A stretch of DNA of 63,833 nucleotides. It comes from Candidatus Kaiserbacteria bacterium. GTDB taxonomy: Bacteria; Patescibacteriota; Minisyncoccia; Phycocordibacterales; UBA2100. Each line of letters begins with the position of its first letter. Position 1 is the stretch's first letter. The translations under genes and the position numbers were made by a program. Below are positions 36,908-61,873 of the stretch, piece after piece. The notes beneath the pieces were generated by a model. The model worked only from the letters and a program-made list of their open reading frames with translations, was not told the DNA's origin and did no database searches. The stretch covers positions 1 through 63,833 of the forward strand of contig JAIOPS010000026.1 of the NCBI GenBank assembly GCA_021413775.1. Direction: 5' to 3'.

Positions 36908-36912
36908 AATCG

Positions 36913-36940
36913 TTGTGCAGCTCTTATGCTTTGTTATTCT
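36913..36940 (+). promoter_or_regulatory. promoter of the 36947-38895 gene pair, apparently leaderless
   Basis: TTGTGC (36913-36918), 16 nt spacer, TGtTATTCT (-10 at 36935-36940), 6 nt, then ATG 36947. Confidence 0.45.
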
Positions 36941-36946
36941 TTCGTG

Positions 36947-37648: not shown

Positions 37649-37650
37649 CT

Positions 37651-40035: not shown

Positions 40036-40134
40036 GTCCTTACATAATAGTACGCACGACTGCAATTGCATAGCTGCTCTGTGGATTAAGCCTTGTTCAC
40101 ATGCTGTGCTGCACGGAAATTTCAATAGGTTGCC

Positions 40135-42966: not shown

Positions 42967-43084
42967 TCGAAATCCAGTATAGCAGAAGTGAAATCCGTAT
43001 CCTTGAGTTCCTTTGCCATCTGACATAGATTGACGGCAGGTCGTACCGGAAACGGACGACAAAAAAGGACGAAAGGAACTCCGC

Positions 43085-44091: not shown

Positions 44092-44125
44092 GCGGCAGCC
44101 CCTCCCGGGCTGCCGCACTTTTTTT
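44092..44125 (+). terminator. intrinsic terminator
   Basis: 9-bp stem gcggcagcc/ggctgccgc, then acTTTTTTT. Confidence 0.8.
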
Positions 44126-44903: not shown

Positions 44904-44907
44904 ACTC

Positions 44908-46338: not shown

Positions 46339-47982
46339 GTGACAAGACCGGATTATCGTACAGCGACATTCATCGTTATCGCCTGTTGTGCAGCAGCGGT
46401 AATGGCGGCTTTGGCGCTCTCAAACGTAAAGCACAACACTTTTTACGGCGTCAAAGATGCGTTAGCGGACAGCCATATAACCGGCGACGTATACCTTGCC
46501 GGGAGGCACTACGAGGTAAGCGGGTCTACGGTACAGGGTCCGATTGCACCCCTCTCTCCTATCCTGGAGCATGAGGCGCTCAAAGTCATGTACGCTCTCA
46601 CGCTCGCAAAGCGCACACCGGTCTTCGGTCTGGCGGGTGTCAACCCCGATTCGCTCGACGCGGCAACAGCTAAATTGGAGGCGGCGCAAAAGGACCTCAT
46701 CGGTCTGCAGAAGGACGCCGGCAACGCGAAATTAGTGAGGTCCCTCTATCCGATTGTATTTCTTCGCGCTATCTCCGCAGCCGAGCGTGCACGGCTCGAT
46801 TTTATATCATCGGCATCGGATTCAGATGCTGCCCGCTATAACGCGGCTCTCAAAAACGCGGCGCGGGAAGGCGTCATTGCGGCTGATTCTTTCAACAAAG
46901 CATTCGCTGCGGCAATCGGTTCGGCCACATTCCGAATCGGTTCGGCGTCCGGGACACTGACCGGAAAAGGCATGCTTTCTTCCATCGCCGTTATCAGCGA
47001 ACGTATGAAAGAATCATCTGCGGAAATAGACGAGCGCGAGGCATGCATGGACGGGAAGGCCCTCTGCCGGACGAACCTTTCGTTGCCCGACGCTCCGGAG
47101 ATTCCTGTTTTTCTGAACCCGGCCGCCGCAACCACACTCGCGCGGGAAGTTCTCGCGGTGTTTCAGGCTGCCATACCGCCTGCGGAAGGCGAGAATCGTG
47201 TCATAGCACTGTCATCGAGCGTATGCGTTTCGGCACTTGATGCACCGTACTTCTTCTCGCAACTCGCGCCCGTACATGCGGCGTCGGTCCCTTTCCGCTA
47301 CGTAGGCAACATTCTGTTCCTGCGTACTTCAAACGCAAATCAACCGCTCATGCAATACATGAAGAATACGCTCGGGATTACGTACAATATCTCCAACCCT
47401 TTTGTGTATTACATGTGCCCGGAAGTCGGTGACGACCTCGCCCGGCTTCTCAACGTGCAGGCGATAGCACAGTTCGCGTATATGCATCCCGATATCGCGA
47501 TAAAAAAACGTTCGGCCCTCGCGAAAGACGAAATATACGAATCGGACGCTCAGGCGTATTTGAGAGACGCTCTGGCGGAAGCACGCAGCGGCGAAACATC
47601 CCTCCCGCCGGAAGCATCTGCCGAACTGTATGCACTCGCTCTCGCGCAATACGAAAAAGGAACCGGTCTCGACATAGTCATCAAGGGAATAGCGGAAACT
47701 CTGACGAAAGACATTGAAGACTCGCGCAGAGGCGTGCCTTTCCCCTTTCTCACCGATATGAAAATATTATTCACGACACAAAGCCCGTTCCCGTCACTCT
47801 TTCTCGCCCACAACCCGTCGTTCGGCACCTCTCAAATCACGCTGCACGAATCGAACGCAGCCGAGCAGGTCGGATATTTTCGCACATTCCTGCGGTATTC
47901 CGACCTGAAATCAGAAATTCCCCGCGAGTTGTTCGTCCACGACATACGGGAACACGCAATCTTTGAAGGCGCCTCCCTCTGA
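46339..47982 (+). CDS. membrane-anchored hypothetical protein (547 aa), paralogue of 41602-42966
   Basis: GTG start 6 nt after TAGAAT, and an N-terminal TM helix TATFIVIACCAAAVMAALAL. No recognisable domain. Confidence 0.55.
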   Translation: MTRPDYRTATFIVIACCAAAVMAALALSNVKHNTFYGVKDALADSHITGDVYLAGRHYEVSGSTVQGPIAPLSPILEHEALKVMYALTLAKRTPVFGLAGVNPDSLDAATAKLEAAQKDLIGLQKDAGNAKLVRSLYPIVFLRAISAAERARLDFISSASDSDAARYNAALKNAAREGVIAADSFNKAFAAAIGSATFRIGSASGTLTGKGMLSSIAVISERMKESSAEIDEREACMDGKALCRTNLSLPDAPEIPVFLNPAAATTLAREVLAVFQAAIPPAEGENRVIALSSSVCVSALDAPYFFSQLAPVHAASVPFRYVGNILFLRTSNANQPLMQYMKNTLGITYNISNPFVYYMCPEVGDDLARLLNVQAIAQFAYMHPDIAIKKRSALAKDEIYESDAQAYLRDALAEARSGETSLPPEASAELYALALAQYEKGTGLDIVIKGIAETLTKDIEDSRRGVPFPFLTDMKILFTTQSPFPSLFLAHNPSFGTSQITLHESNAAEQVGYFRTFLRYSDLKSEIPRELFVHDIREHAIFEGASL

Positions 47983-47990
47983 CGAAGTTC

Positions 47991-49184
47991 TCATTTGGCG
48001 GCACTCCGCTGCAGTGCATCACACCGGTCTTTGAGAACGCCCGGAAGCGGCCGGCAAAACGCACCAAATTCCCTCTCATCTGTACCGAAAATATAGACTG
48101 AACGGTTCACTATGCCGGAAAGACATTCGGCAGCCAGAGATTCTGTCGGTATCGACTGACAGAACGCCATCGCACCCATAGCGTTTGTGCGGTCCTCTTC
48201 CAGTAGGATTTGTGCGACGGTCACAACGCATGACGATTGCTGGTCTTCCGGGACGTGGAGGCACGCAGAAACCGCTTTCCCCGGCTCAGCTACATATGCC
48301 CTGCCGATGGTGGAGAACTCGATGCCGTAGCAATACTTTCTCTCTGTGACGTCCGGTTCGGCAGCGCAGAGCGCCTCCACACCCGAGCCGCTCAATATTT
48401 CATCTCTGAAAAACGGCCAGCTCTCGCGGATGCAGGCACCGACATACTGTGAGTCCTCAAACGACCGGCAAAATTGTCCTACGGTCGCCTTCGTCGGTTG
48501 CACGGGCAGCTGCTGTATCATCAGGAAATCTTCCGGTTCGCGGGGACGGAATATCTGCATAAAGACTCCGTCGAAACAAAAGTGGCGGAAGTCGGAAGGA
48601 ACGGCCCGTGAACAAATCGAAAGCGCTTTCGGAATATCCGTGTTCGTAATGAAATCGAAAAGGTGACCCAGGCCGTGATAGCACCCTTCTCTGTCCAGGT
48701 CTGAAGGCGACCATTTTGCGGAGTTGCTGCACGCCAGTGAAAATTGCGGAATGAACTTCTCAATCGTCGCATCATCGAGCACTTCGCTTCTGAAGCGCCC
48801 CACGGTAACGCCGTGAACGTATCCGTTCGAGCACACACCTTCCGGCGGCGTCAGGGACAGCATGTCGACCCACTGTGCGGGATCTTCCGCAACGACGCGC
48901 TCGCCTATTTTATGTCCGAGAACATGGCAGAACTGATACGACACATCAAGCGCACGTATCTCGCGTACGACCTCGAAAATCTGTGCCACTGACATTTTCG
49001 GATACAGAGCCGGGACTTCAGCCTCGTAGCATGCGGAATGGTCAATACCGCTTCGAGCGCATGACGCCACAATCAGCCGCGCGACATTTTTTACGGAGCC
49101 CGACGCACGGAAAAACCCTACGGCGGCGGCGCTCACAGCCAGGAGACAGATAACGACAATCCCTATTTTTTTTCCGGAATACAT
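47991..49184 (-). CDS. Cys/His-rich exported paralogue P1 (subtype A)
   Basis: TM anchor IGIVVICLLAVSAAAV. Motifs YQFCHVLGHKIG, CSNGYVHG, CYHGLGHL and CFDGVFMQIF. It is the last gene of the operon. Confidence 0.7.
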   Translation of the reverse strand: MYSGKKIGIVVICLLAVSAAAVGFFRASGSVKNVARLIVASCARSGIDHSACYEAEVPALYPKMSVAQIFEVVREIRALDVSYQFCHVLGHKIGERVVAEDPAQWVDMLSLTPPEGVCSNGYVHGVTVGRFRSEVLDDATIEKFIPQFSLACSNSAKWSPSDLDREGCYHGLGHLFDFITNTDIPKALSICSRAVPSDFRHFCFDGVFMQIFRPREPEDFLMIQQLPVQPTKATVGQFCRSFEDSQYVGACIRESWPFFRDEILSGSGVEALCAAEPDVTERKYCYGIEFSTIGRAYVAEPGKAVSACLHVPEDQQSSCVVTVAQILLEEDRTNAMGAMAFCQSIPTESLAAECLSGIVNRSVYIFGTDEREFGAFCRPLPGVLKDRCDALQRSAAK

Positions 49185-49266
49185 GAATATGCAGCGAGAA
49201 TTATTGCAATCGCACTTCTCTATAGTTCTAGCACACCCGCATGACCGGCGAAGCTCACCTCACCGT

Positions 49267-49803
49267 TTATCGTTTGCGCCCTTTCCAGATGAAAAACGCG
49301 AGCGCCCCCATGAGCGCGCCGCCGAGAAAAATACCGGTGCTCGGCAAAACGCTGCCTCCCGAGCCGGAGGAAGAAATCGAAAACGGGAACGATGCGACGG
49401 CCATATCGTTACCTTCTTTGTCGCGGAAGCTTGCCTCGATTTTGTACGTACCCGCATCCAGAAAGCTATAGAGCAACGTAGTGGGTCCCAGCTGCTGCTG
49501 GCGGATGCCTGTCGCAAGCAGTGTTTTTTCGTTTCGCACGAGGCGCACCCACACGTGGTCGTACGCGGTGATATCGCTGTTCTTCTCCTCGAGCAGCTGG
49601 AAGTCAAAACGCGCGCTGAGGCCGACTTGAAACTCATTCGGGTCATACCCGATATCAATGACGTACGGCGAAGTGGTCGCGGTCCACGACAGTCCGACCA
49701 CGTGCGCCGAGGCGCGTTCGGTAACGCTCAGCAGTGCCCCGCACACTGTAAGGAGAGTGATTGCAAAATATGCGGATGTGCGGACGAGACGACGTTCTGT
49801 CAT
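49267..49803 (-). CDS. LPSTG-anchored surface protein (sortase substrate) with predicted N-terminal His after signal cleavage
   Basis: Signal peptide ...SVTERASA-HVVG. The C-terminus is LPSTG, a hydrophobic helix and KGRKR. ATG 49803 is preferred over GTG 49821. Confidence 0.7.
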   Translation of the reverse strand: MTERRLVRTSAYFAITLLTVCGALLSVTERASAHVVGLSWTATTSPYVIDIGYDPNEFQVGLSARFDFQLLEEKNSDITAYDHVWVRLVRNEKTLLATGIRQQQLGPTTLLYSFLDAGTYKIEASFRDKEGNDMAVASFPFSISSSGSGGSVLPSTGIFLGGALMGALAFFIWKGRKR

Positions 49804-49821
49804 ATGCGGAGTATATCGCAC

Positions 49822-51012
49822 TCACCGCGGCTGTGAACTTCTCCCGCACTGTGAGCGCATATCGGCCGGGAGCGCGGCACAGAATCGCTGTAACTCATCT
49901 GAATTCTGTCCGAAGATAAACGGTGCCTGCATAGTCAGCGTTTCCATACAATTCCGCGCGATGCTGCCGGGGGCACGCGCACACAGAGAAATGGCTTTAC
50001 TTGCATCATTCCTGTTCTCTTCCAAAACAGCCTGGGCTGTCGTTTTGAAACAGAGGTCCTGACGCTCTGACGGCAGTTTCCCGCACGCATCGGCCGCCTT
50101 CGCGGGGTCGCCCAGCGACATCCGCCCGATGATTGCGGTCGCGGATTGGTAACACGCTGTTTCCTCTTCCGCATTCGGCTGTCCGGAGCAGAATGATTCC
50201 ACCCCGGTACCGTCCGTCATTCCGGCATGCAGCGGCCAGCTTTCGCGGAGGCACGCTCCTTCGTACGCGGGATTCGAGCGGAATGCTGCGCAAAATTGCC
50301 GTACAGTATCCGCTGTCGGCTTTACGGGCATTTGTGCGATGAGAGCATAATCGTCCGGCTCGAGCGGCTGATAGATTTGCATAAACACTCCCTCGCGGCA
50401 TACCCGATGGAAATCATCGCTGGTGGTTTCTTCACAAAGGGCCAGGGCTTTTTTCAGGTCGGCATTTGTAATGAAGTCATAGAGGTGTCCCATGCCGTGA
50501 TAGCACATGGCCTTATCCAGATTGCTCGGATTCCACCCGTTATGCGGTTCGCACGCGCGACGGAAATCGGGCAAAAACTTTTGGAGCGTACTGTCATCGA
50601 GAACTTCCGCGCGAAAGCGCCCCCCCACTACTCCGTGAATGTACCCGTTCGAACACAGTCCGTCCGTCGGATTCATCGGTATCGCATCAACCCACCTGTT
50701 CGGGTCCTCGGCGACGACCTTCTCACCTATTTTATGCGCGAGCACATGGCAGAACTGATAGGACGGGTCTTTCTGACGGATGATACGGATGATGTCGAAA
50801 AGCTGCGGTACCGCGACGCCCGGATACAGCGCGGGCACCTCCTTTTCATAACAGGCACTCGGGTCCGTTTGCGTTTTGCACGTCGTCACGATGGCGTTCG
50901 CGCGGGCCTCCAGACTTCCGGTGCCGACGCTCCTCAGAGACCAAAAAGCGAACACCGACATGATGATTGCCAGCGCAGCCAAACCGCCTACGATGTATTT
51001 TTTGTCCGTCAT
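49822..51012 (-). CDS. Cys/His-rich exported paralogue P2 (subtype A)
   Basis: The start ATG overlaps the P3 stop (ATGA 51009-51012). Motifs YQFCHVLAHKIG, CSNGYIHG, CYHGMGHL and CREGVFMQIY. By hand count there are 18 Cys after the anchor. Confidence 0.7.
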   Translation of the reverse strand: MTDKKYIVGGLAALAIIMSVFAFWSLRSVGTGSLEARANAIVTTCKTQTDPSACYEKEVPALYPGVAVPQLFDIIRIIRQKDPSYQFCHVLAHKIGEKVVAEDPNRWVDAIPMNPTDGLCSNGYIHGVVGGRFRAEVLDDSTLQKFLPDFRRACEPHNGWNPSNLDKAMCYHGMGHLYDFITNADLKKALALCEETTSDDFHRVCREGVFMQIYQPLEPDDYALIAQMPVKPTADTVRQFCAAFRSNPAYEGACLRESWPLHAGMTDGTGVESFCSGQPNAEEETACYQSATAIIGRMSLGDPAKAADACGKLPSERQDLCFKTTAQAVLEENRNDASKAISLCARAPGSIARNCMETLTMQAPFIFGQNSDELQRFCAALPADMRSQCGRSSQPR

Positions 51013-52238
51013 GGTGCCTGTATACATGCCTCTTTGTATTGTGCGGGAAACATCCCGCATACCTGTTTTTTCTTGTCCGGTCCGTAAAAACGCGAGAGCC
51101 TCCGGGCCAGGGTATCGTAGCAGATGCTTGTGCCTTCGCGCGCATTCAGCTCCCCGAGTGCGCACATAGGCAAAATCTTCGCGTATTCATTTCCCGGGTC
51201 GCCGTGCTCCATCATCCCGTTTGTAGCGCTGACGATGCACGCCTTGAACAGCGCGTCGTCGGTCACCTTCGTACAATCTTTAAACACGTTCGGATACCCG
51301 TCGAGCGGCGCGAGCCTCTGCATCATCCCCGCGACAATGACGCCGAAGGTCATGTCCCGAATATCTGTCTCCTTGATGCCACCGACGTACTTTGAGGCCG
51401 AAAGCACGTCATCTCCGATAACCGGCTGAAGCTTCTGTCCGAACTCGTAATAACACGCCCAGTGCCATCTTTGAATGAGACCATCACAGTCCTTAAACGG
51501 GTTCTTGAAATCGAATGCGAGTCCGAAGTTCTTTTCTATCATCCAATCCGACATCACGTTGAATACGCCTTCTCTGCATTCTTCCACTTCCTGTTCGGAA
51601 ATGCCCGGAAGCGCTTCGCATTTCTTGAGAGGAGCGTTCACCATCCACGCCACGTCTCCCCACTTGTCTTTCTTGAGAGTATCCGCTACAGATTGAATGA
51701 AACCGTGCCCGCTCGCGTGATAGCAAACCCGTGCGATATCGTGCATGTTCTCCGAAAGACGTCCCCGCAGATACTCGCATGTCTCTTTCACGAAGCTCGG
51801 CTGCGGGTGGTCCTGCGTCATGTGCTCGAGAAAACCGTGAAAAAAGCCGTATCCGCAGGACGTCGTTTCCTGAGGAAAATCCATCTGCGGAAGACTCAGA
51901 CCGTGGGTGACGAAAAATTCATAGTACGCCGTGTCACCAAGGCGATGCGCGTTCACATGGCAGCCCCATGAACCGAAGAGCGGATACGCGTCGTACAGGT
52001 AATCAAAGGCGCGGTACGCAGCGGATACGTCGCCGTTCCTGATGTACTTGAGCGCGATTTGTACGAAACAATTATCCTTATCATCATCGGTGCCGCCCTT
52101 CGATGCGCAGGCGCGGGCTTCAATGCGATTCGTGACACTCTCCACGATACGCGGTCCGCGGATGACGGCTGCAACGGCGAGCACCGCACCGAGCAACGCA
52201 ATCACGAGCACGATATTTCTATGCTTACTGAACCACAT
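51009..52238 (-). CDS. Cys/His-rich exported paralogue P3 (subtype C)
   Basis: TM anchor IVLVIALLGAVLAVAAV. Motifs GCHVNAHRLG, SCGYGFFHGF, VCYHASGHGF and CREGVFNVM. It overlaps the cupredoxin-like gene by 14 nt. Confidence 0.7.
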   Translation of the reverse strand: MWFSKHRNIVLVIALLGAVLAVAAVIRGPRIVESVTNRIEARACASKGGTDDDKDNCFVQIALKYIRNGDVSAAYRAFDYLYDAYPLFGSWGCHVNAHRLGDTAYYEFFVTHGLSLPQMDFPQETTSCGYGFFHGFLEHMTQDHPQPSFVKETCEYLRGRLSENMHDIARVCYHASGHGFIQSVADTLKKDKWGDVAWMVNAPLKKCEALPGISEQEVEECREGVFNVMSDWMIEKNFGLAFDFKNPFKDCDGLIQRWHWACYYEFGQKLQPVIGDDVLSASKYVGGIKETDIRDMTFGVIVAGMMQRLAPLDGYPNVFKDCTKVTDDALFKACIVSATNGMMEHGDPGNEYAKILPMCALGELNAREGTSICYDTLARRLSRFYGPDKKKQVCGMFPAQYKEACIQAP

Positions 52239-52623
52239 GAATAGTGCCCGTATAGTAAGAACGGATATGGTCGTGATACCCCCACCGTCCGATTTTGTCG
52301 AAACGGAATTGCCAGGTGGCATCGGCCGCCACCGGCGCAAGCGGGTCGAACGCGGGATACAACGTGTGATTGGGATGCGGGTCGGACGCCGGCCAGAAAG
52401 GTCTGCCGTTTGTCGTGGAAAAGGTCACTGTGCCGCCCACCCGGATGGTTACATTATTCGGTTCAAACCCTTTGTCCGTCAGCACAACGGTCGCGTGCTC
52501 CTTCACTTCCGTCACCTGCTGTGAAGGCCGGAATACGCCTGTACGCGAAACCAAGAGGACCGTGACTGCTACGACGGCGACTACAAGCATCGCAGGACGG
52601 GAAAATCTCATACGGGCCATCAT
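52225..52623 (-). CDS. membrane-anchored cupredoxin-like protein without the type-1 Cu cysteine
   Basis: TM anchor. VVLTDKGFEPNNVTIRVGGTVTFSTTN fits the cupredoxin beta-sandwich pattern. Conserved WPASDPHPNHTLYP and WGYHDHIRSYYTGTIHVV are present, and the mature part has no Cys. Confidence 0.55.
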   Translation of the reverse strand: MMARMRFSRPAMLVVAVVAVTVLLVSRTGVFRPSQQVTEVKEHATVVLTDKGFEPNNVTIRVGGTVTFSTTNGRPFWPASDPHPNHTLYPAFDPLAPVAADATWQFRFDKIGRWGYHDHIRSYYTGTIHVVQ

Positions 52624-52651
52624 AGCACCCGAGGTCGGCTAGAAAAAAATG

Positions 52652-53659
52652 CTATCGGGCCCCGCAGAGATTCCCGTACGATATCTGACCGGAGGTGCAA
52701 AGCGCACGTAACTGCGCCTTCCCCGCATCACTTTGCAGGAGGTGCTGCAGCGCCTCATGGAGACAGGCATCCCTATCCGGTGCCGTCGGCATGACAGAGC
52801 ACCAATCCCGCATCGTGGCCGATTCGTATCCGCTTCCCGGTCCGATAGTGTTTCCGATACCCCGGAAACACGTGTCTCTGAGCGCGGAATCCGTAATGAC
52901 CGCACAGAGACCTCCGACCACCCGATATTGATCCTTCGTAGACACATCTTTTTCGCCGAGTGACGCTTTCCACCATGACGGAAGCTCGTAATAACACGCA
53001 CCGCGGAACTTTTCCGGTACTTCTGTTGCGCACGGTTCGTTTGCGGCCGAAGCGTCAAAGGGCCGCAGCTTGATGCCGTCCGCGCTTTGCATCGTGTTGT
53101 AGTTGTACTCCATGAATACGCCTCCGTAACATCCGCCGATGGTCTGACCGTTGTTAACGGATGCGCAAGCCTCGAGTGCCTGAGAAAGTTTTTCATTGCC
53201 GAGGTACGCAAGAATACCGTGTCCGATTCCATGAATGCAACCGAACGCAATCATAGAATCGCCTGCTCCGTTGCAGGCGTCACGCAAATCGTTCGTCCCG
53301 CTCAGTCCGCGCGCACTAAGCGCCGCTCCTGCAAACCCGTGATAACAGCCGTATGCGAAATCCTGCGTACATTTCTGGATACCCTGCATGCCGAATTTTT
53401 TGTAGAGAATTCCGCCGATAACGTGCGCCAGTTTATGCGCCTCGTCGTAGGACAGAGGGTTCGCCTCTTTCATAAATTCTCCGTACGCACCGTCGGGCGA
53501 ACGGTCGAAGGCATCTTCCCATTTCTTTTCGAGCTGCTGATACGCGGACAGCGGGCCGGGCTGCTGAACGGTCTTTTGACCACGCGCGTACAGAACACAT
53601 ACGGACAGAACCAGCAGCAGCGCGACTCCTCCGACCAGGTATGCCAGTGACTTTTTCAT
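52652..53659 (-). CDS. Cys/His-rich exported paralogue P4 (subtype B)
   Basis: ATG at 53659. Motifs AHKLAHVIGG, GCYHGFAG, GCIHGIGHG and GGCYGGVFMEYN. Confidence 0.7.
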   Translation of the reverse strand: MKKSLAYLVGGVALLLVLSVCVLYARGQKTVQQPGPLSAYQQLEKKWEDAFDRSPDGAYGEFMKEANPLSYDEAHKLAHVIGGILYKKFGMQGIQKCTQDFAYGCYHGFAGAALSARGLSGTNDLRDACNGAGDSMIAFGCIHGIGHGILAYLGNEKLSQALEACASVNNGQTIGGCYGGVFMEYNYNTMQSADGIKLRPFDASAANEPCATEVPEKFRGACYYELPSWWKASLGEKDVSTKDQYRVVGGLCAVITDSALRDTCFRGIGNTIGPGSGYESATMRDWCSVMPTAPDRDACLHEALQHLLQSDAGKAQLRALCTSGQISYGNLCGAR

Positions 53660-53669
53660 GTGAAGCGGA

Positions 53670-54881
53670 TTAGCGTACTGTGCGGGTCTTTTGGTAACAC
53701 GAGTCATGCCACTCATCCGGTATGGCATCGCACAGCGTCTTTGCCTCTACCGATCCCTGCGGCATCCCTTGTTCCGCGTATGTCACCAGTTCCATCCAGC
53801 ACGATTGTTTCGCTTCCTGCGGCGCGTCGTTGCAGATACCGACTGCCTTCGCGACATTCTTCCAGTCAGCCCACACGAATTTTGAAGCGGTGCGAGCCCA
53901 GCAACTGTTCCGAAAATCCGGGTCGACGATTCCGCGGCAAAACTCCTCTATTTTCGGCACGTCGTAATGCAGCGTCTCGATGACGGGATATATTATCGCG
54001 GACGCGCAGTACAACTCAGCGCTCCTGTCGCTCGAGAGATTGCAGAGCGCTTCCATTATGTGCGGGTCAGTGGAGCTTCCCGGCACATCGGGCCACGATT
54101 CTTTGACGCATGTGTTGTATACGAGCCCCGTAAACTGCGAGCAGAATTTTTTCGTATTCTTCGCCAGGGGCCCCACCTCGTGGACGAGCACCTCATCCTC
54201 AGGTTCGAGCGGTTGATAGAGCTGCATGAAAACTCCCTCATAGCAGGTCTGTCTGAAATCATAATCGGGCAGTTTGGCTATCGCAGCACACAGAGCAACC
54301 GATTTCTTTACGTCTGCCTGCGTCACGTAAAGAAAGAGGTGACCCATGCCGTGCATACAGGACGAACGATCGAGGAGCGTCGGATTCCAAGCGCCCCGCG
54401 GATCACACACTCCCGCGAGCATGCCCTTCATCTCATCGACTGATACCGTGCCAAGGGACTCCAAGCGGAAACGTTCCTGGAATGCCCCGTGGACGGCGCC
54501 GGAACCGCAGATACCCATCGGCGAGCGAACCACAACGTCTTTCCATTTTGACGGGTCCCTCGCCACCTCTTTCGACGTGACGAGATGTGCGAGTACGTGA
54601 CACGATTGGTAACCGGGGTCCAGCTGCTGGATGAGCCGCACAACGGAAAAAGTCCTTTCCATCGACAGTCCTGCATCCATGAGCGTGGGCACATTTTTTT
54701 GATAGCATATCTCCTTCTGCGCCTCGGTTGTAGCCGCTTTGCATGCGGCGACTTCACGATGAGCCACAGCGTTATCGCTTTCAAAGTGTGTAGGCAGGAG
54801 CGAGGGAAAAGCAGCGACGCCGGCCAGCACAAGAGCTACAAGCGCGAGCGCGAGCACAACAGCAATGCGGATTTTTTTCAT
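53670..54881 (-). CDS. Cys/His-rich exported paralogue P5 (subtype A)
   Basis: ATGA overlap with P6 (54878-54881). Motifs YQSCHVLAHL, CGSGAVHG, CMHGMGHL and CYEGVFMQLY. Its closest relative is P7. Confidence 0.7.
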   Translation of the reverse strand: MKKIRIAVVLALALVALVLAGVAAFPSLLPTHFESDNAVAHREVAACKAATTEAQKEICYQKNVPTLMDAGLSMERTFSVVRLIQQLDPGYQSCHVLAHLVTSKEVARDPSKWKDVVVRSPMGICGSGAVHGAFQERFRLESLGTVSVDEMKGMLAGVCDPRGAWNPTLLDRSSCMHGMGHLFLYVTQADVKKSVALCAAIAKLPDYDFRQTCYEGVFMQLYQPLEPEDEVLVHEVGPLAKNTKKFCSQFTGLVYNTCVKESWPDVPGSSTDPHIMEALCNLSSDRSAELYCASAIIYPVIETLHYDVPKIEEFCRGIVDPDFRNSCWARTASKFVWADWKNVAKAVGICNDAPQEAKQSCWMELVTYAEQGMPQGSVEAKTLCDAIPDEWHDSCYQKTRTVR

Positions 54882-56068
54882 ACGTCGCATTGGGATTTTC
54901 TATACTTCTCCGGTATCTGCCCGCAAACGGTATGCAACACATCGGGTTCGAAATAGTATTCGGACAAAAGCTGAATCGTCGCGTAGCACGAGTCGCGTAA
55001 TCCGGCGGGAAACGTTTCTGCGCTGCAAAGATTCTCGGCTTCGATGTACTGTTTTCCCGGCGAGCCGAACTCGAAAATACCTCCGACAAGACCACTGACG
55101 CAGCTGTCTCGCAGTTCGGCGGTGGGCAATTCACATACGCGAACCTGCTCCGGCTGGAGTTGCTTTTGATCCCATTTGAGAATTTGTATATAGAACGAGA
55201 CGGCTTCGTGAATGGCGAGTGCCCGGTACTTTTGGTTCGTTATCGTATTGCCGAACGCGACCATGCCTTTTAAGTCATGGTTGGCGAGAGCTGCGGCCTG
55301 TGTATTCATTTGGTCGTAACACGTTTCCGTCTCAAGAGGTGTGAAGCCGCCCACGCGACAAAGCGCGTACGGGTCAGTCCCGGAGTCGAGTTTGTACTTC
55401 GGATTCGGATACATATTACCGATGGCGTTGAAAACACCCGACACGCACCGCATGTGCCACGTTTCATTGCCTGCCGAGACTTTGTCGCAGACAGCCAACC
55501 CCGGTTTCGCTATCGCGACCGCGTCGCCCCACAATCGCGGGTCGGTTCCGTCGGTTATACCGTGGCCGATGCCGTGATAGCACGAGCCTTCCGCGAATTC
55601 AGGCGGCGGCGGGTGCGGGACATTCTTACCGACATACGTGCAGAACGCGCGAGCAACCTCCATGTCGTTCGTGTCCACATACAGCGCATCCATGAAGCCG
55701 TGATAGAAGCCGTATCCGCAGTACGACGCCTTGCTCGTGAGTTCAGTCTTCCCTGTTTTCTGAAATTCCTCGTACGCGGCCTTTCCCAGTTCGTGCGTGA
55801 CATCGTGACACGTACCCGCAAACCCGGGGTCCGTATCATACGCAAGTGCAAGCGCGTCAAATGCCGCAGAAATCCCCTTCGCGCGCAACAGGTTCTCTAT
55901 CTCCGTTGCATAACAGAGAGGTTTGTTCCCGGCGCTCGCGCAGATTTCCAGAACACGTGCAGGATTTTCGCGCGAGATGAATGTATGCGCGACGATGCCC
56001 GCGAGCGCGAACATGGCGCATAAGAGAAAGCCGACAATAGAAAGCTTGAAATAGCGTGAACTCATCAT
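54878..56068 (-). CDS. Cys/His-rich exported paralogue P6 (subtype C)
   Basis: ATGA overlap with P7 (56065-56068). Motifs TCHDVTHELG, YCGYGFYHGF, SCYHGIGHG and CVSGVFNAI. Confidence 0.7.
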   Translation of the reverse strand: MMSSRYFKLSIVGFLLCAMFALAGIVAHTFISRENPARVLEICASAGNKPLCYATEIENLLRAKGISAAFDALALAYDTDPGFAGTCHDVTHELGKAAYEEFQKTGKTELTSKASYCGYGFYHGFMDALYVDTNDMEVARAFCTYVGKNVPHPPPPEFAEGSCYHGIGHGITDGTDPRLWGDAVAIAKPGLAVCDKVSAGNETWHMRCVSGVFNAIGNMYPNPKYKLDSGTDPYALCRVGGFTPLETETCYDQMNTQAAALANHDLKGMVAFGNTITNQKYRALAIHEAVSFYIQILKWDQKQLQPEQVRVCELPTAELRDSCVSGLVGGIFEFGSPGKQYIEAENLCSAETFPAGLRDSCYATIQLLSEYYFEPDVLHTVCGQIPEKYRKSQCDV

Positions 56069-57285
56069 AGCGTAGTATGTGTATTCGTAAGACACGTCGA
56101 ACGCCACTTCTCCGGCATCCCGCCGCACAACGCTTTGGTCTGAGGAGAATCGGGCTTCATTCCCTGCTCCGCATATCCTGAAAGTTCTTTCCAACAGGCA
56201 TCAGCGGACGGCGGTGAATCCGAGCACACAGCAATTGCTTGGGGTACGTTTTTCCAATCAGTCTCGACGAACCGGACGGCCGTACGCGAGACGCAGATGT
56301 CACGGACTGACGGATCAGGAAGCTGTGAACAGAGCGAGAGCATAGACTTTGCATCATATTCTTTCATCCCCATGACAACAAATACGAGTCCCCGTACGCA
56401 GTTGTCGTACCCGTCTTTACCTTTAAGCGGTGCGCACACGGCGTCGAAACCTTCCGGAGTCATAATATGCTCCTTTTCAACAGGCCAGCTCTCTTTGATA
56501 CACGTCTCAAACGCGAGTCCGGGATATTGGCTGCAAAATTTCACCCTGTCTTTCGATGCGGACGTTAATTTGGCAACAAGACCGATATCCTCGGGTTCGA
56601 GCGGCTGATAAATCTGCATGAAAACTCCCTCCTCGCAGGTCTCGACGAAATCAGCGACCGGCGCTTTCCCTTTCCCCAACACCTCGCAAAGCGCAATGGA
56701 TTTCGAGATGTTCGCATCCGTGATGTAAACGAGCAAGTGCCCCATGCCGTGCATGCAACTCGAACGCTCTATCAGGGTCGGCGACCAACCTTCACGGGGG
56801 TCGCACGCACCGGCGATAAGATTCCGCACTTCCTCAACAGACGCATTCGGCAAGGACGTCGAACGGAAGCGCTCCTGGAAAGCACCGTGCAGGGCGCCGT
56901 TTCCGCACATTCCTGCGGGCACGCGTGCGATGATATCTTTCCATTTCGACGGATCCTTTGCCGTCTCTTTCGCGGATATGAGGTGCGCCAATACGTGGCA
57001 GTAGTGATACGTGGGGTCAAGCTCCTGGACAATCGCGGTCACGGCATACGCACGCTCCATCGAAAGACCCTTGTCCATGAGCGCGGGAACTGATTTTTCG
57101 TAACATAAATCTCTGCTCGAGCCCTTTTCTTTCGCGCACGCCGTCACTATGTCCGCTGCTATCTTTGCGTCGCTCCGCATGCTTCCGGGTAAACGTGCCA
57201 GCAAAATCCAAGCGAGGAGCACTCCGATAAGCACGAGCGCTCCGACGATAATAAGCATGCGGTATGTCTTTCGTACGTACATCAT
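56065..57285 (-). CDS. Cys/His-rich exported paralogue P7 (subtype A)
   Basis: ATGA overlap with P8 (57282-57285). Motifs YHYCHVLAHL, CGNGALHG, CMHGMGHL and CEEGVFMQIY. Confidence 0.7.
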   Translation of the reverse strand: MMYVRKTYRMLIIVGALVLIGVLLAWILLARLPGSMRSDAKIAADIVTACAKEKGSSRDLCYEKSVPALMDKGLSMERAYAVTAIVQELDPTYHYCHVLAHLISAKETAKDPSKWKDIIARVPAGMCGNGALHGAFQERFRSTSLPNASVEEVRNLIAGACDPREGWSPTLIERSSCMHGMGHLLVYITDANISKSIALCEVLGKGKAPVADFVETCEEGVFMQIYQPLEPEDIGLVAKLTSASKDRVKFCSQYPGLAFETCIKESWPVEKEHIMTPEGFDAVCAPLKGKDGYDNCVRGLVFVVMGMKEYDAKSMLSLCSQLPDPSVRDICVSRTAVRFVETDWKNVPQAIAVCSDSPPSADACWKELSGYAEQGMKPDSPQTKALCGGMPEKWRSTCLTNTHTTL

Positions 57286-58295
57286 TGAATAGCAAAAAAA
57301 TACTCTTTCAGGCATGTCGAGGATTCGGAAGCATTGAGGCCTTTGGTACAGACGCCTTCCGCCTTATCCCGAGTGACAGGGTCGGCATAGAATGCCCACG
57401 CGAGCCCCTCTCGACACCACAGGCGCGCGTTTCCTGTCGCCGCGTTGTCACAAAACACTTCTCCCGCATCGGCATTGAAATGCGTCTCAGGAATGATGCC
57501 GTATCCGAGCCCGCGGTAACATGCGACCCGGAGACGGGATTCCGCGACAGCGGCGCAAAATCCTCCGAGCTTCTGCGGCAAAGCGGAATCGAACGGAAGC
57601 GCGGTCGCCCACCATGCGGGCAGGCCGAAGTAACATGCTTCCGGATACAAACTCAGCGAAGGGCACGGCTCGTACACATTCCCAGCATCAAACGGACGGT
57701 AGCGCTTCGTCGCATCTTTTTCCATGACACGGAAGTTGTACTCCATAAATACTCCGTCCGCACATCCTCCAATCGGCTTTTTCCAGGAAAGAGTCGCGCA
57801 TAAGGATAGAGATTTTTCTACATCCTGAATGCCGTATCCGTAGTACGAGAGCAGGCCGTGCCCGATGCCGTGAAAACATCCTGTGCCATCCGGGCCGTAG
57901 ATAGTGACACATGTGGCATCGAGAACTTTCACAACATCCGGACCGTGCTCTGCAATCGCGCGCCCGAGAAAGCTATGGTAGCAACCAAATCCGAAGCTTC
58001 CGTCACAGACCGTAAAGCCCTTGATGCCCTCGTGCTCGTAGAGAACCTCGCCGAAAATATGAGCGGATGTGTGCTGGTCGACGGCGGAAAGCTTTGCATT
58101 CTCGTTTTTAAACATCCCGAACGCTTCCGCAGCGGAGCGGCCGGCAAACAAAGATTCCATGTGAGCCCGTTCGTCGGAAAAAGCGCCGGAGTCGGTACCC
58201 GCTTTTTCACCACGTGCAGACAACAAAATCGCTGCCGATGCAGCGAGAATCACAATAAGTGCGAGCGCCGAAACGACAATGCGGACTCGGCTCAT
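57282..58295 (-). CDS. Cys/His-rich exported paralogue P8 (subtype B)
   Basis: ATGA overlap with P9 (58292-58295). Motifs HTSAHIFGE, GCYHSFLG, GCFHGIGHG and GGCADGVFMEYN. Confidence 0.7.
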   Translation of the reverse strand: MSRVRIVVSALALIVILAASAAILLSARGEKAGTDSGAFSDERAHMESLFAGRSAAEAFGMFKNENAKLSAVDQHTSAHIFGEVLYEHEGIKGFTVCDGSFGFGCYHSFLGRAIAEHGPDVVKVLDATCVTIYGPDGTGCFHGIGHGLLSYYGYGIQDVEKSLSLCATLSWKKPIGGCADGVFMEYNFRVMEKDATKRYRPFDAGNVYEPCPSLSLYPEACYFGLPAWWATALPFDSALPQKLGGFCAAVAESRLRVACYRGLGYGIIPETHFNADAGEVFCDNAATGNARLWCREGLAWAFYADPVTRDKAEGVCTKGLNASESSTCLKEYFFAIQ

Positions 58296-59515
58296 AACGA
58301 GAGCTTCGTTCTGCAGGCAGACTGATACTCTCCAGGTACCTGCGCGCAGAAAGCCGCGGCAGGATTACTCTTCGGGGCAACGTAATGTGAAGCCTCTTCG
58401 AAGAGTGCCTGAAAGCATGCCGGACGTTCAGCAGAGTCGGCACTACCGCAAAAGCGAATCGCCGCTTTCGAGTCGTTCTCACCTCCCCAAAAGAGAGACG
58501 CGACAATCGACTGTTCGCATGCATCATAGGCTTCTTTGTGAGGAGCCAGTGCGCACCATTCTCGCATTTGGTTCAGCTGCTGGTCAGTCGCGTCCGCAAT
58601 CGAACGGATATCACGCATCATCGCAAGCACGGGAAACTCCTTGCCGATGCCGCCGAAGCAGGCCTGACGCAGTTCGGGAGTGTCTTTCGAAAGACGGTCG
58701 CAGTATGTAAATGCTTTTGCGAAATGTTCCGGTTTGGGAATATCGAGATTCGCTCCCGCGGCTTCGAAGAGGTGCGGTGTGATATACACGTAACACAAAC
58801 CCTTCGCGTCGGACGGAATGACACTCGTTGAGCATGGCGCAAGCGGATCCTTCGGGTCGTAGTATTTTTCGCGCGCCTTGAGCCACAAATTACGGTCATG
58901 ACCTCCGCCGCCCATCAGTTCCATAATCGCGCCTCCCACACACTGCACATACTCATCGTTGTGATACTGCGCCGTACCGGTCTTGCGGCAAAAGTCGACT
59001 GTCTTCGCGAGATCGTATCCGTAGAAAGCAAAGACGCCGTGGCCGAGTCCGTGATAGCACATTGTGTATGCGCCGGAGCCGCCGGGAGCCTTGCGGCACG
59101 CGTCGTTGATAAGAGAGAGCGCTTTTGTGCCGCCGTATTCATTCAGCGTGCCGATGACGATTGCGTGCGAACAGGCATTCCTGAAATCCTGGGTACAGTC
59201 GGCAATACCGTCGACTCCTTTTTGTTTGTACAGCTCATCCCCCACCGTGTGACCGAGGAGGTGCAAGTCTGTATTCGGCGGAAGCTGCGCCCTGCCGAGA
59301 ACTGCATAGGCGTACACCGCACCTTTTTTTTGCGCGAGTGCCGCGAAGCGATCCGAAAGTTCCTGGAAATTTCGCGCATCCGCTCCGATAGTTTCCGCCT
59401 CAGGGTATGAGCCGCCGGAAGTGGTGCGGGCGAAGAGCGCGATAAGACCTCCTACAAGAACGAGGAGCGTCACTCCAATAACAACCGGTACGTTCAGATG
59501 AGGTACACGTTTCAT
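58292..59515 (-). CDS. Cys/His-rich exported paralogue P9 (subtype B-like)
   Basis: TM anchor VVIGVTLLVLVGGLIALF. Motifs HLLGHTVGD, ACSHAIV, MCYHGLGHG and CVGGAIMEL. Confidence 0.7.
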   Translation of the reverse strand: MKRVPHLNVPVVIGVTLLVLVGGLIALFARTTSGGSYPEAETIGADARNFQELSDRFAALAQKKGAVYAYAVLGRAQLPPNTDLHLLGHTVGDELYKQKGVDGIADCTQDFRNACSHAIVIGTLNEYGGTKALSLINDACRKAPGGSGAYTMCYHGLGHGVFAFYGYDLAKTVDFCRKTGTAQYHNDEYVQCVGGAIMELMGGGGHDRNLWLKAREKYYDPKDPLAPCSTSVIPSDAKGLCYVYITPHLFEAAGANLDIPKPEHFAKAFTYCDRLSKDTPELRQACFGGIGKEFPVLAMMRDIRSIADATDQQLNQMREWCALAPHKEAYDACEQSIVASLFWGGENDSKAAIRFCGSADSAERPACFQALFEEASHYVAPKSNPAAAFCAQVPGEYQSACRTKLSL

Positions 59516-59538
59516 TCAACAAATGTAGCAACGAACCG

Positions 59539-60627
59539 TCACCTGAACAAGAAATGGTACAGACGTTGAATGAGAGGAATATTTGAGGGCGTTGTCGGCT
59601 CCACGCTGAAACCAAGAACGTCGGGCAGACTTCCGAAGCCGGGTGTCGAACGCGTCGAGAAATAGGAGGTATACCCCTCCGGGAAAAGGTACTCGCCCTT
59701 ATTAACAAGTTGCCCGGGACCTTTTTCGACTTCCGGCACAATCGGATTCGCCAGAATGTAGGCGTCATGACGGATTCCCGTTACCTGCCACGAGACTTTC
59801 CCGTTGGCAGCACCTCCACCGATCGTGAACTCGTTATTTTTTTCTTCCACTTTTACATAGAGATTCGGCATCGGTGCACCGAGAGGCTTGAGCTGGTATC
59901 GCACCTCAGTATTCAACGCGTCAAAATATGAGGGGAGCTCCACAATCGCCTCACCTTTTTTATCAAGCCGCACAATACCGTCGTAGACGTTTTTCGCGTC
60001 GGGTGACTCGACGAACGAGTGGTACAGGAGTTTGTTCTTGGGGTCCTGCGGGTGGTCAATAACGAACGTACCCGAGCCTTTGGATATAGAACCGGTGACG
60101 GCAAAATTTCCTGTCACGCTCACGTTTTTAGTAAATGTCGTCTGGTACGAACCCTGGTAGTACGCCTGGGCGTAGCCGTAGTAATAGCCCTGGGCGTAGC
60201 CGTAGTAATAGCCCTGGGCGTAGCCGTAGTAGTAACATTGTGCGTAGCCGTAGTAGTAACCTTGTGCGTAGTAATAGCCCTGGGCGTAGCCGTAGTAGTA
60301 ACCTTGTGCGTAGCCGTAGTAGTAACCTTGCGCGTAGGCGTAGCCGTAGTAATAACCTTGCGCGTAGCCGTAGTAATAGCCCTGAGCGTAGCCGTAGCCG
60401 TAGTAATAGCCCTGGCCGTAGTAATAGCCCTGGGCGTAGCCGTAGCCGTAGTAATATCCCTGGCCGTAGCCGTAGTAATATCCCTGGCCGTAGCCGTAGT
60501 AATATCCCTGGCCGTAGCCGTAACCCGCGTACGCGGTACCGGGTGTGAGGAGCACCACATACACAATGATTCCTGCGAGTACTGACAGGAAAGCGCCGTA
60601 CGTCCATGCTTTCTGCTGAAGGTTCAT
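59539..60627 (-). CDS. exported protein: 127-aa Gly/Tyr repeat plus 'HSFVESPD' domain (paralogue D3)
   Basis: ATGA overlap with D2 (60624-60627) and a TM/signal segment. The region contains about 15 (GY)(G/A)QGYYY-type units (6-11 aa, mostly 8 aa), then SKGSGTFVIDHPQDPKNKLLYHSFVESPDAKNVYDG...GKVSWQVTGIRHD. Confidence 0.7.
   Translation of the reverse strand: MNLQQKAWTYGAFLSVLAGIIVYVVLLTPGTAYAGYGYGQGYYYGYGQGYYYGYGQGYYYGYGYAQGYYYGQGYYYGYGYAQGYYYGYAQGYYYGYAYAQGYYYGYAQGYYYGYAQGYYYAQGYYYGYAQCYYYGYAQGYYYGYAQGYYYGYAQAYYQGSYQTTFTKNVSVTGNFAVTGSISKGSGTFVIDHPQDPKNKLLYHSFVESPDAKNVYDGIVRLDKKGEAIVELPSYFDALNTEVRYQLKPLGAPMPNLYVKVEEKNNEFTIGGGAANGKVSWQVTGIRHDAYILANPIVPEVEKGPGQLVNKGEYLFPEGYTSYFSTRSTPGFGSLPDVLGFSVEPTTPSNIPLIQRLYHFLFR
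60145..60525 (-). repeat. in-frame tandem repeat (mostly 24-nt units, with 18-33-nt variants) encoding GYAQGYYY/GYGQGYYY
   Basis: Repeated gcgtagccgtagtaatagccctgg-type units on the plus strand. The encoded region is about 50% Tyr. Confidence 0.9.
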
Positions 60628-61172
60628 TTGCATAAAGGCTCGAAGAGGCACGTGCCGACGTTTACTTCCTGACCGGGACCTTTTGGCACTTCGACAATGA
60701 CAGGATGCTTCAAAATGTACGGGTCATGGCGGATACCTGTTATTTGCCATGAGACTTTTCCACCCGGAGTACCTCCTCCTATGACGAAGCTGCTATTCTT
60801 CTCTTCGGTTTTTATATACAGATTTGGCATTGCGCTGTCGAGTGCGGAAAACTGATATCGTGAATCTCTGTTCAGCGCATCATAGTATGCAGGCAGCTGT
60901 ATGACAGTTTCTCCCTGTGCGTCCAAAACTGCAATACCGTCGTAGATGTTTTTCACGTCCGGCGACTCGACGAACGAGTGGTAGAGAATTTTGTTTGCCG
61001 GATTTATCGGATCGTCGATTGCGAATGTTCCCGAACCTTTCGAGAGTGTTCCCGTAATCGCGAGATTGCCCAGGAATCTCACACCGCCTGTAAGGGTGAC
61101 GGCGAATGCAGCGGCCGGCACAAGTACTGCGAGAGTAAGGAGACCGACAATGAGTGAAGATTTATTGCGCAT
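60624..61172 (-). CDS. exported 'HSFVESPD' domain protein (paralogue D2)
   Basis: ATG at 61172 (MRNKSSLIVGLLTLAVLVPAAAFA), then SKGSGTFAIDDPINPANKILYHSFVESPDVKNIYDG...GKVSWQITGIRHD. Confidence 0.65.
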   Translation of the reverse strand: MRNKSSLIVGLLTLAVLVPAAAFAVTLTGGVRFLGNLAITGTLSKGSGTFAIDDPINPANKILYHSFVESPDVKNIYDGIAVLDAQGETVIQLPAYYDALNRDSRYQFSALDSAMPNLYIKTEEKNSSFVIGGGTPGGKVSWQITGIRHDPYILKHPVIVEVPKGPGQEVNVGTCLFEPLCK

Positions 61173-61767
61173 AGCATTCTTCGCAAATATATTTGCCTTT
61201 ATCAACGATTTCGTCAGGCCCCTTAGCGACCTCCGGAATTATGGGGTTGGCGAGAATGAACGGGTCGTGACGGATTCCGGTGACCTGCCACGACACTCTG
61301 CCGTTTGGTGCGCCGCCCGCGATTGCGACAGACGGCGAACCGAAAAGCCCGAGGAAGCGCGGCTTTACTTCGCTCGAGAGGTACATCTCCGGCATCGGCT
61401 CTCCTATCGCCGTCGCGAGATACCGGAAGTCCTGATTGAGCGCGAGAAAATATGCAGGAAGAACTACGGTTGCCTCTCCTTTCTCGTCGAGCGTGACAAT
61501 ACCGTCGTACATGTTTTTTGCGTCAGGCGATTCCACAAACGAGTGAAAGAGGAGCATGTTCTTGGGGTCCAGCGGATGGTCGATGACGAACGTGCCCGCG
61601 CCCTTCGAAAGAACTCCTGTGATAGACGCGCTGCCCGCAGTCGAGCTCTTCGAGAGCTTTATGGTCGTGTGCGAAAATTGCGCATGCGCACGGACGGGCA
61701 GGAAGAGGGCCAGCCCAATCAGAGAAACTCCAAGTAGAGAGTACAAAGAGAGTGCCTGGGCGCGCAT
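61162..61767 (-). CDS. exported 'HSFVESPD' domain protein (paralogue D1), first gene of the operon
   Basis: Signal peptide ...LFLPVRAHA, then SKGAGTFVIDHPLDPKNMLLFHSFVESPDAKNMYDG...GRVSWQVTGIRHD. Confidence 0.65.
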   Translation of the reverse strand: MRAQALSLYSLLGVSLIGLALFLPVRAHAQFSHTTIKLSKSSTAGSASITGVLSKGAGTFVIDHPLDPKNMLLFHSFVESPDAKNMYDGIVTLDEKGEATVVLPAYFLALNQDFRYLATAIGEPMPEMYLSSEVKPRFLGLFGSPSVAIAGGAPNGRVSWQVTGIRHDPFILANPIIPEVAKGPDEIVDKGKYICEECYAQ

Positions 61768-61779: not shown

Positions 61780-61873
61780 AGGCTGAAAAGCGGAGAATGG
61801 AACCGCTGTGAAGCAGACATCGTGTCAAACGACTTTTGCGAAGAAAAGCCCGTGGGATATACTCCCTACATCT

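Follow-up and report, generated by a model that had tools for sequence, protein, structure and literature searches.

Two conserved modules, a candidate adhesion fibre and a putative histidine-based metal-binding system, in a 14-gene cluster of exported proteins from Candidatus Kaiserbacteria

The stretch of 63,833 nt at positions 1-63,833 of contig JAIOPS010000026.1 of a Candidatus Kaiserbacteria bacterium (assembly GCA_021413775.1), called the window below, carries at positions 47991-61767 a cluster of 14 open reading frames (ORFs) for exported proteins, all on the minus strand. An earlier note on this DNA had treated the cluster as a single protein set. Judged by the gene content of related loci, a division of the 14 genes into two conserved modules is the better reading, one formed by three paralogues (D1-D3) together with a large fibre-like gene upstream of them (Y), and the other by nine paralogues of a family called P here, a cupredoxin-like protein (Cup) and a small immunoglobulin-like (Ig-like) protein (LP). 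We tentatively propose that an adhesion fibre module stands here beside a histidine-based extracytoplasmic module for a metal, which is probably copper. The two hypotheses put forward earlier, metal/redox handling and host attachment, each fit one part: metal handling suits P, Cup and LP, and attachment suits Y and D.

To describe conservation, 83 loci were collected, mostly from GTDB species representatives, and 80 remained after removing duplicates; they were translated in six frames and searched with hidden Markov models (HMMs) built from the window proteins. The loci were found via the alignment of P subfamily A (defined below), that of all nine paralogues being too divergent. At least three P genes were present in 70 of the 80 loci (median 5, maximum 13), Cup in 59 (32 of the 35 loci with full 10-kb flanks) and LP, after the P core, in 39. 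D was found in 19 loci and Y in 11, and in 24 of the 35 full-flank loci P, Cup and LP stood without any D or Y within 10 kb. The P/Cup/LP module is far more widespread than D, and it also occurs without D. The recurring order was P9-type, P8/P4-type and P2/P7-type, followed by LP and Cup, with subfamily-C P genes usually fused to Cup or preceded by it. A close relative, locus L003 (GCA_021733565.1), kept nearly the whole order of the window, including the neighbouring genes X547, Z369 and Z273 described below. All informatively named homologues came from Patescibacteria (Kaiser-, Paceibacterota, Nomura-, Adlerbacteria and similar), in agreement with the earlier placement of the organism in this group. 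Because each gene has many homologues elsewhere and the arrangement recurs in 80 loci, the cluster exceeds chance; the outcome that the note had named as fatal to its proposal, a cluster not conserved in relatives and with scattered members, is refuted by these neighbourhoods.

The gene layout was taken from the ORF listing and its translation, with presumptive start codons chosen from overlaps and N-terminal hydrophobic segments. Six junctions are ATGA start/stop overlaps, at 60624-60627 (D2/D3), 58292-58295 (P9/P8), 57282-57285 (P8/P7), 56065-56068 (P7/P6), 54878-54881 (P6/P5) and 51009-51012 (P3/P2). Longer overlaps were found between D1 and D2 (11 nt, ATG at 61172) and between Cup1 and P3 (14 nt), and gaps of 23, 10, 28 and 82 nt separate D3 from P9, P5 from P4, P4 from Cup1 and LP from P1, respectively. 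The gap between P2 and LP is 18 nt if LP starts at ATG 49803, and there is none if it starts at GTG 49821. Each of the 14 products has one N-terminal hydrophobic segment, in agreement with the signal peptide or anchor ascribed to all of them earlier, and on recomputation the gene number, strand, junction sizes and six ATGA overlaps matched the earlier figures. No Shine-Dalgarno-like tetramer was found 4-18 nt upstream of any of the 14 starts, and one was found upstream of only 5 of 26 other window genes, whose starts are approximate; translation initiation in the window seems to be largely independent of such sites. The cassette of ∼14 kb compares with ∼0.7-0.9 Mb for two related complete chromosomes, and elsewhere the window carries ordinary chromosomal genes (ThrRS, GyrB, PheT, release factor, transketolase, GAPDH, RpiB).

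Promoter-like and terminator-like sites were not more frequent in the region than in shuffled sequence, and therefore transcript structure and operon boundaries are unreadable from sequence. This leaves some room for the view that the genes form no system at all and are unrelated exported-protein genes packed by genome streamlining. We consider this very improbable, because the same gene order is preserved in 80 loci from different species, Cup::P fusions occur repeatedly, one LP::Cup fusion was found, and six of the junctions are 4-nt start/stop overlaps. The synteny and the fusions already contradict this view. Since P, Cup and LP are linked by fusions and by order-preserving synteny, we predict with high confidence that they work together.

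The nine P genes, all on the minus strand, fall into subfamilies A (P1, P2, P5, P7), B (P4, P8, P9) and C (P3, P6), and their paralogy, noted earlier, was borne out by an alignment with 16 invariant His/Cys/Gly positions in addition to the start Met. P9 (58292-59515), of the founder type of subfamily B, opens the conserved P core; its orthologues, which are 39-59% identical, stand at the head of the P genes in most of the related loci. P8 (57282-58295, subfamily B) is the second conserved core gene. P7 (56065-57285, subfamily A) shares 46% identity with P5 (53670-54881) and 32-33% with P1 and P2, and P6 (54878-56068, subfamily C) is of a type usually fused to Cup in relatives. P4 (52652-53659, subfamily B; 33% identical to P8) and P3 (51009-52238, subfamily C) follow. 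P2 (49822-51012, subfamily A), the third conserved core gene, has the best-conserved orthologues, which are typically ∼37-72% identical and stand before LP in most loci. P1 (47991-49184, subfamily A), 46% identical to P2, was the basis of the structure model.

In an exhaustive profile search of 1.84 billion representatives at 50% identity, 7,187 proteins matched P at E ≤ 1e-3, of which 5,904 did so at E ≤ 1e-10; tandem arrays of 2-7 P copies occurred in some. The statement that the family was unrecognised held: none of the nine proteins matched any Pfam family at E ≤ 0.1 or any NCBIfam family, and the P profile found nothing among PDB sequences at E ≤ 10. The AlphaFold2 model of P1, made from a 97-sequence alignment, was all-alpha with high confidence scores (pLDDT, the predicted local distance difference test score, of 94.3; predicted template modelling score, pTM, of 0.89), and consisted of an N-terminal transmembrane/stalk helix followed by ∼22 helices. 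Foldseek gave no meaningful fold match to this model in the PDB (best E 0.076, template modelling (TM) score 0.14), and the 50 matches listed were generic solenoids (TPR, HEAT, importin) with TM ≤ 0.24 and E ≥ 0.076; the search included the N-terminal transmembrane helix, which may lower the scores. Zinc phospholipase C/P1 nuclease, imelysin/M75 and hemerythrin were considered as relatives and dropped, because none was among the 50 listed fold matches and the PDB search with the P profile was empty. As for domain combinations, the representative library contains unusual P fusions (P0348, P0241): in one protein P is joined to Wzy_C, an O-antigen ligase-like domain, and a 3,580-aa protein combines seven P copies with a GH3 glycosidase and LRV/HEAT repeats. 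A Pfam scan of three other giant multi-copy P relatives gave no domains, a result that is not decisive.

Profile self-alignment revealed internal repeats in P (E 1e-7), in whose register the helix C168-Y-H-G-x-G-H is equivalent to the second-Cys helices of the later hairpins. In 405 distinct P domains from the 83 loci, the His residues at H87, H91, H124, H170 and H174 were conserved to 98-99%, and the Cys pairs 152/168, 191/203, 239/251, 308/319 and 342/354 to 89-100%. In the model, the first Cys of each repeat lies at one helix end and the second at the start of the next helix; this placement suggests hairpins stapled by disulfides. The His residues fall at matching positions (Cys+1/+2 and Cys+5/+6) along the equivalent helices of three successive repeats, which suggests that this His ladder may form one site.

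The same helical repeats could be read as a structural envelope scaffold, in which the P solenoids are non-catalytic blocks that assemble hetero-oligomerically into a layer, or a spacer, separating membrane and surface layer, with Cup and LP as accessory structural domains. The His and Cys residues would then be needed only for folding, for structural Zn or for assembly that depends on pH. Scaffolds are typically built from helical-repeat proteins, and only generic solenoids were found among the fold matches of P1; that the paralogue order is fixed and the genes are tightly coupled would fit stoichiometric subunits, one P domain is fused to the envelope-polymer ligase domain Wzy_C, and no transporter or enzyme was seen near the cluster in the five loci whose neighbouring genes were annotated with Pfam. 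Nevertheless, conservation of five His residues at 98-99% across three subfamilies that are only ∼20% identical is stronger than packing would predict, and we regard a scaffold as unlikely; further evidence on this point comes from Cup and LP.

Cup1 (52225-52623, minus strand) and Cup2 (61808-62356, plus strand, divergent from D1) are both membrane-anchored and share 36% identity. Cup1, which had been described as a Cys-less cupredoxin-like protein, indeed contains no Cys; it carries the motifs WPASDPHPNH and YHDH and matched Pfam Cupredoxin_1 below the threshold, at E 0.002. Cup2, which carries WPASGLHPTH and FHDH, matched the same family at E 1.5e-5, just under the cut-off; it keeps the family His and Asp residues, lacks the type-1 Cys ligand and has three Cys elsewhere. 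In L003, L005 and L015, an orthologue of Cup2 sits in the same orientation between D3 and P9. A profile of 34 Cup members aligned to amicyanin at E 1e-7 to 8e-7 over ∼90 residues, that is, the full domain, PF13473 is precomputed on most close Cup relatives, which reach the Pfam threshold, and Cup homologues are named "plastocyanin" or "cupredoxin domain-containing protein" in their sources, the homologues of the other families being "hypothetical protein". By these sequence matches, Cup1 and Cup2 are cupredoxin-superfamily homologues by descent.

In the amicyanin alignment, Cys92 corresponds to an invariant Asp of Cup with an invariant His on either side (H-D-H). The position of His95 is not conserved in Cup, a hydrophobic residue takes the place of Met98, and the N-terminal ligand loop reads WPAS-x2-H-P-x-H. 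The invariant motif of the family is WPASxxHPxH ... FD ... HDH, and Cys was absent from 106 of 119 domains. The type-1 copper ligand set of His, Cys, His and Met is not present in the Cup alignment, and Cup cannot be a blue-copper electron carrier, because the type-1 Cys ligand is replaced by Asp. The His site nevertheless lies at the canonical copper position, with hard ligands in place of Cys and Met. Of the metal/redox handling proposed earlier, redox is weakened relative to metal binding by the Asp at the Cys position. That Cup keeps an invariant His/Asp cluster exactly in the canonical copper-site loops also speaks against a scaffold. Cup and P were found on one ORF for 78 of the 119 Cup domains, and 71 of those 78 P domains belonged to subfamily C; independent fusions occurred in the representative library (P0364, P0301, P0300, P0349, P0282), and the L003 equivalent of P6 is itself a Cup::P fusion. 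Cup1 and P3, which overlap by 14 nt, look like a split version of this common Cup::P(C) fusion.

LP (49267-49803, minus strand) is Ig-like, with a His as its predicted first mature residue. Its C-terminus, ...LPSTGIFLGGALMGALAFFIWKGRKR, contains LPSTG, then a hydrophobic segment and then a KGRKR tail, so that the LPXTG sortase-substrate layout of motif, hydrophobic segment and basic tail is present in the window protein, whose LPSTG had been noted earlier. Nearly all LP homologues listed have the transmembrane segment and basic tail without LPXTG, and one other has the motif, as LPATG, in L069. In 34 aligned homologues, His34 was invariant directly after the A-x-A end of the signal peptide, W85 and two Gly were invariant, and Asp50 and Asp67 were nearly so. 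The LP profile gave weak Ig-like matches to filamin and PKD repeats. The single LP sequence had no match in the PDB, and the profile matched filamin Ig repeats only; none of the 34 members matched DUF1775/CopC at E ≤ 1, and YcnI/CopC chains were absent from the PDB search with the LP profile at E ≤ 10. The fusion of LP to Cup was found once (L073, 6184-7239). Published work has searched for new metalloproteins by requiring a conserved mature N-terminal His, which yielded Cu-binding Ig-like proteins (PMC12537917), and the Cu(II)-binding protein YcnI is laid out as signal peptide, N-terminal His, beta-sandwich, conserved Trp and C-terminal transmembrane segment (PMC8424229). The invariant N-terminal His of LP speaks against a scaffold, and with three independent His-based sites, in proteins that are fused to or neighbour one another, ligand chemistry is indicated instead.

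The same residues could instead belong to an extracytoplasmic metalloenzyme, in which the five-His site of P or the N-terminal His of LP is catalytic and Cup is a metal donor or accessory protein. By oxidation, like a lytic polysaccharide monooxygenase (LPMO) or oxidase, or by hydrolysis, it would attack envelope polymers, lipids or nucleic acids of the host and so obtain building blocks. Many biosynthetic pathways are missing in Patescibacteria, and in one giant relative seven P copies are joined to a GH3 glycosidase domain. N-terminal-His Ig-like proteins do include LPMO enzymes (PMC10952591, PMC12537917). But LP is small (∼110 aa) and lacks the second invariant His of a canonical brace, P has no fold match to any enzyme, nine paralogues per genome are unusual for an enzyme, and Cup, in which the Cys is absent, is incapable of type-1 electron transfer. 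A metalloenzyme in this sense is regarded as improbable.

In the tentatively favoured reading, P, Cup and LP would form a membrane-tethered extracytoplasmic metal-binding assembly, with Cu(II) as the likeliest metal. Each P would be an N-terminally anchored alpha-solenoid of disulfide-stapled helical hairpins, whose repeats 2-4 carry a ladder of five near-invariant His residues (H-x3-H, H, H-x3-H). Cup would contribute a site in which the type-1 Cys is changed to Asp within the invariant H-D-H, together with H-P-x-H, and the mature N-terminal His of LP could form a site of the histidine-brace type. At the cell surface, the assembly may bind the metal and hand it on, acting as a relay or buffer, or may employ it in catalysis. 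The fixed paralogue order, 4-nt overlaps and frequent Cup::P fusions suggest a stoichiometric hetero-complex, and a metal-binding assembly appears the most economical explanation because P, Cup and LP all carry near-invariant His-based sites in membrane-tethered extracytoplasmic domains. Metal binding, the identity of the metal and complex formation are predictions here, as are the disulfides and the single five-His site of P and the D heterotrimer described below.

Several points weigh against this reading. CopA, CopZ, CopC/D, Sco, a cuproenzyme or a permease did not adjoin the cluster in the five annotated loci, and no copper, iron or transport gene was linked to the cassette there. His-only sites do not identify the metal, so Zn, Ni and Fe are possible. 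The spatial clustering of the five P His residues is deduced from the repeat register only. LP is without detectable sequence homology to YcnI, CopC or LPMOs, and cleavage of its signal peptide before the His is predicted. The locus frequencies are biased, since subfamily-A patterns were used and the genomes are mostly Paceibacteria-like.

The second module lies directly upstream of the P array. D1 (61162-61767, minus strand) is signal-anchored and has a tail-fibre-tip-like beta domain with an HSFVESPD motif, D2 (60624-61172, minus strand) is 48% identical to D1 and 61% to D3, and D3 (59539-60627, minus strand) has a Gly/Tyr repeat spacer of ∼120 aa between anchor and domain. The mutual identity of 48-61% agrees with the paralogy stated earlier, and the Gly/Tyr tract noted in D3 is real, corresponding to a DNA tandem repeat at 60165-60522 with a period of 24 and 14.7 copies. 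The D profile has at least 2,956 relatives, and no D product matched Pfam or NCBIfam. The AlphaFold2 model of D1 (pLDDT 82) showed a beta domain behind an N-terminal helix, for which Foldseek returned 15 matches at E ≤ 1e-3 in BFVD, a database of predicted viral structures. Two proteins headed these matches, a minor tail protein from the Arthrobacter phage Mufasa8 (best, with E 2e-8 and ∼30% identity) and a tail-fibre-like protein from Prochlorococcus phage P-SSM2. Searches with D by tblastn gave Arthrobacter phage and cyanophage records at E 8e-7 to 5e-5, among them phage genes also found in BFVD. PDB fold matches were weak (E 0.03) and comprised the cyanophage Pam1 tailspike receptor-binding domain and the R2 pyocin fibre. 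By both fold and sequence, then, D resembles the C-terminal domains of phage tail-fibre tips and minor tail proteins. The D profile also aligned weakly to the Mycoplasma lipid-uptake proteins P116/MG075 over a 58-residue stretch (E 4e-4); as only 58 residues were involved and P116 was absent among the 50 listed PDB fold matches, the similarity was taken as a shared beta motif and not as meaningful homology.

Y (62413-63833, minus strand), flanking the cluster, had been called tail-fibre-like, and this description stands. Its stop codon is absent up to the window edge; because the ORF is open there, the 473 or more residues encoded in the window were taken as the C-terminal part of a larger fibre-like surface protein. 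Y had no Pfam match. Homologues of Y in which the Y-type segment is repeated 2-5 times precede the D trio in 11 of the 80 related loci. The order D1-D2-D3 was kept in all 11 loci with three D genes. Y and D1-D3 would constitute an attachment fibre, in which the giant fibre protein and D contact a host or surface. Because tail-fibre tips are trimeric and the D1-D2-D3 trio is fixed, D1-D3 may form a heterotrimeric knob (tip) or base. The two modules may cooperate, or may simply be co-expressed surface functions.

Alternatively, all 14 proteins and Y could be a single host-attachment apparatus, with the P paralogues as a diversified receptor-binding surface like that of parasite adhesin families. 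Patescibacteria in culture are found attached to the cells of their hosts, and the fold that D shares with tail-fibre tips suggests that it binds a receptor. In many loci the giant fibre gene and the D trio are immediately upstream and co-directional; D adjoins P in 19 of the 80, across lineages in which subfamily-A P proteins show only 30-50% identity to P1. P, however, is not hypervariable: subfamily orthologues are stable, at ∼37-72% identity across genera and in fixed order, and its invariant residues, His and Cys, do not make up a variable surface. As P, Cup and LP were also without D or Y nearby in most of the full-flank loci, one apparatus for all of these proteins seems as improbable to us as the metalloenzyme.

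Outside the cluster, X547 (46339-47982, plus strand) encodes a transmembrane-anchored protein of 547 aa without a Pfam match, convergent with the cluster. Homologues of X547 were convergent to the P array in 16 of the 80 loci, often as 2-3 tandem copies, and X547 is probably a separate unit. Z369 and Z273, at 44124-46017 on the minus strand, overlap by 38 nt. Z369 matched weakly the C-terminal part of AMP-binding enzymes (E 0.004), and Z273 gave no match; Z369 accompanied the cluster in 14 of the 80 loci and Z273 in 4. TctC-family and DctP-family solute-binding proteins are encoded near the cluster at 35880-36857 (plus strand) and 38926-40125 (minus strand), and such proteins were also seen in the related loci L084 and L085; a matching membrane subunit was not seen among the window ORFs scanned. 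Five further ORFs of 277-636 aa had no Pfam match (41602-43386, minus; 37609-38895, plus; 36815-37648, plus; 32839-34749, minus; 3125-4669, minus), and a bacterial surface Ig-like domain is encoded by a neighbouring ORF at 31655-32821. There may be more uncharacterised surface proteins in the window.

Full-text literature searches found no published description of the P family or the cassette. It is possible, although we hold it to be somewhat unlikely, that P, Cup and LP are an unrecognised, Patescibacteria-specific extracytoplasmic metalloprotein system, acting as a membrane-tethered relay or catalyst and physically coupled to a heterotrimeric adhesin derived from a tail fibre; the new five-His site on a new solenoid fold, the natural Cys-to-Asp cupredoxin and the brace-like Ig protein would then allow these episymbionts, with their reduced genomes, to obtain or exploit copper, or else a different metal, where they meet the host. 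A large part of bacterial diversity belongs to Patescibacteria, yet for the majority of their conserved surface proteins no function has been assigned. Should metal be bound at the His sites, three new site types would be added to bioinorganic chemistry, and a first handle on the metal economy at the symbiont-host interface would be gained. If D is read correctly, a phage tail-fibre tip domain would serve the cell as an adhesin. A model for Kaiserbacteria proposed a "putative cupredoxin" as electron donor to NirK (PMC5581439); this cupredoxin may belong to the Cys-less Cup family, in which case it would be unfit for that role and the model would need revisiting.

The cassette as a system matches nothing described. 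By sequence and fold, P and LP appear to stand outside all known families tested, and Cup and D to be divergent superfamily members in new roles. The conserved His and Asp residues of Cup fall in both loops that bear the type-1 ligands of amicyanin/plastocyanin-type cupredoxins. Unlike amicyanin, Cup has an invariant Asp for Cys and a hydrophobic residue at Met, its second loop His is unconserved, it has new invariant His residues (HPxH, HDH) and a WPAS insertion, and it is membrane-anchored or fused to P. It resembles the engineered type-2/type-zero sites of azurin C112D. LP shares with YcnI (DUF1775) the signal peptide, the predicted N-terminal His, a small beta-sandwich, an invariant Trp and the C-terminal anchor. 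In contrast to YcnI, CopC, LPMOs and Ang-1 (DUF6702), LP has no second invariant His, and its weak matches are to filamin/PKD Ig domains; a CopC/CopD partner was absent in the five annotated loci.

The combination of Cup and P recalls EfeO of the EfeUOB iron uptake system, which consists of a cupredoxin domain and an all-alpha M75 metal-binding domain. Cup::P follows the same logic, with an N-terminal non-blue Cupredoxin_1-type domain and then an all-helical extracytoplasmic domain with a metal-type motif. But the P domain matched M75/imelysin in neither sequence nor fold, P is membrane-anchored and multi-paralogous, and neither an EfeU/FTR1 permease nor an EfeB peroxidase was found in the five annotated loci. 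The Helicobacter cysteine-rich proteins (Hcp) are Sel1-like helical-hairpin solenoids with a Cys pair stapling each repeat, and the Cys positions in the model and the repeat alignment suggest a similar Cys-stapled solenoid for P. The Cys spacing is, however, ∼10-15 residues in P and 7 in Hcp, none of the nine P proteins matched the Sel1 repeat profile of Pfam, and P differs in having a His ladder and an N-terminal membrane anchor and in occurring in Patescibacteria. Finally, D is similar in fold, and weakly in sequence, to phage tail-fibre tips, minor tail proteins and R-type pyocin fibres. In contrast to phage fibres, the D proteins are cellular and short (180-360 aa), have an N-terminal hydrophobic anchor instead of a shaft, and are encoded as a fixed paralogue trio beside non-phage genes.

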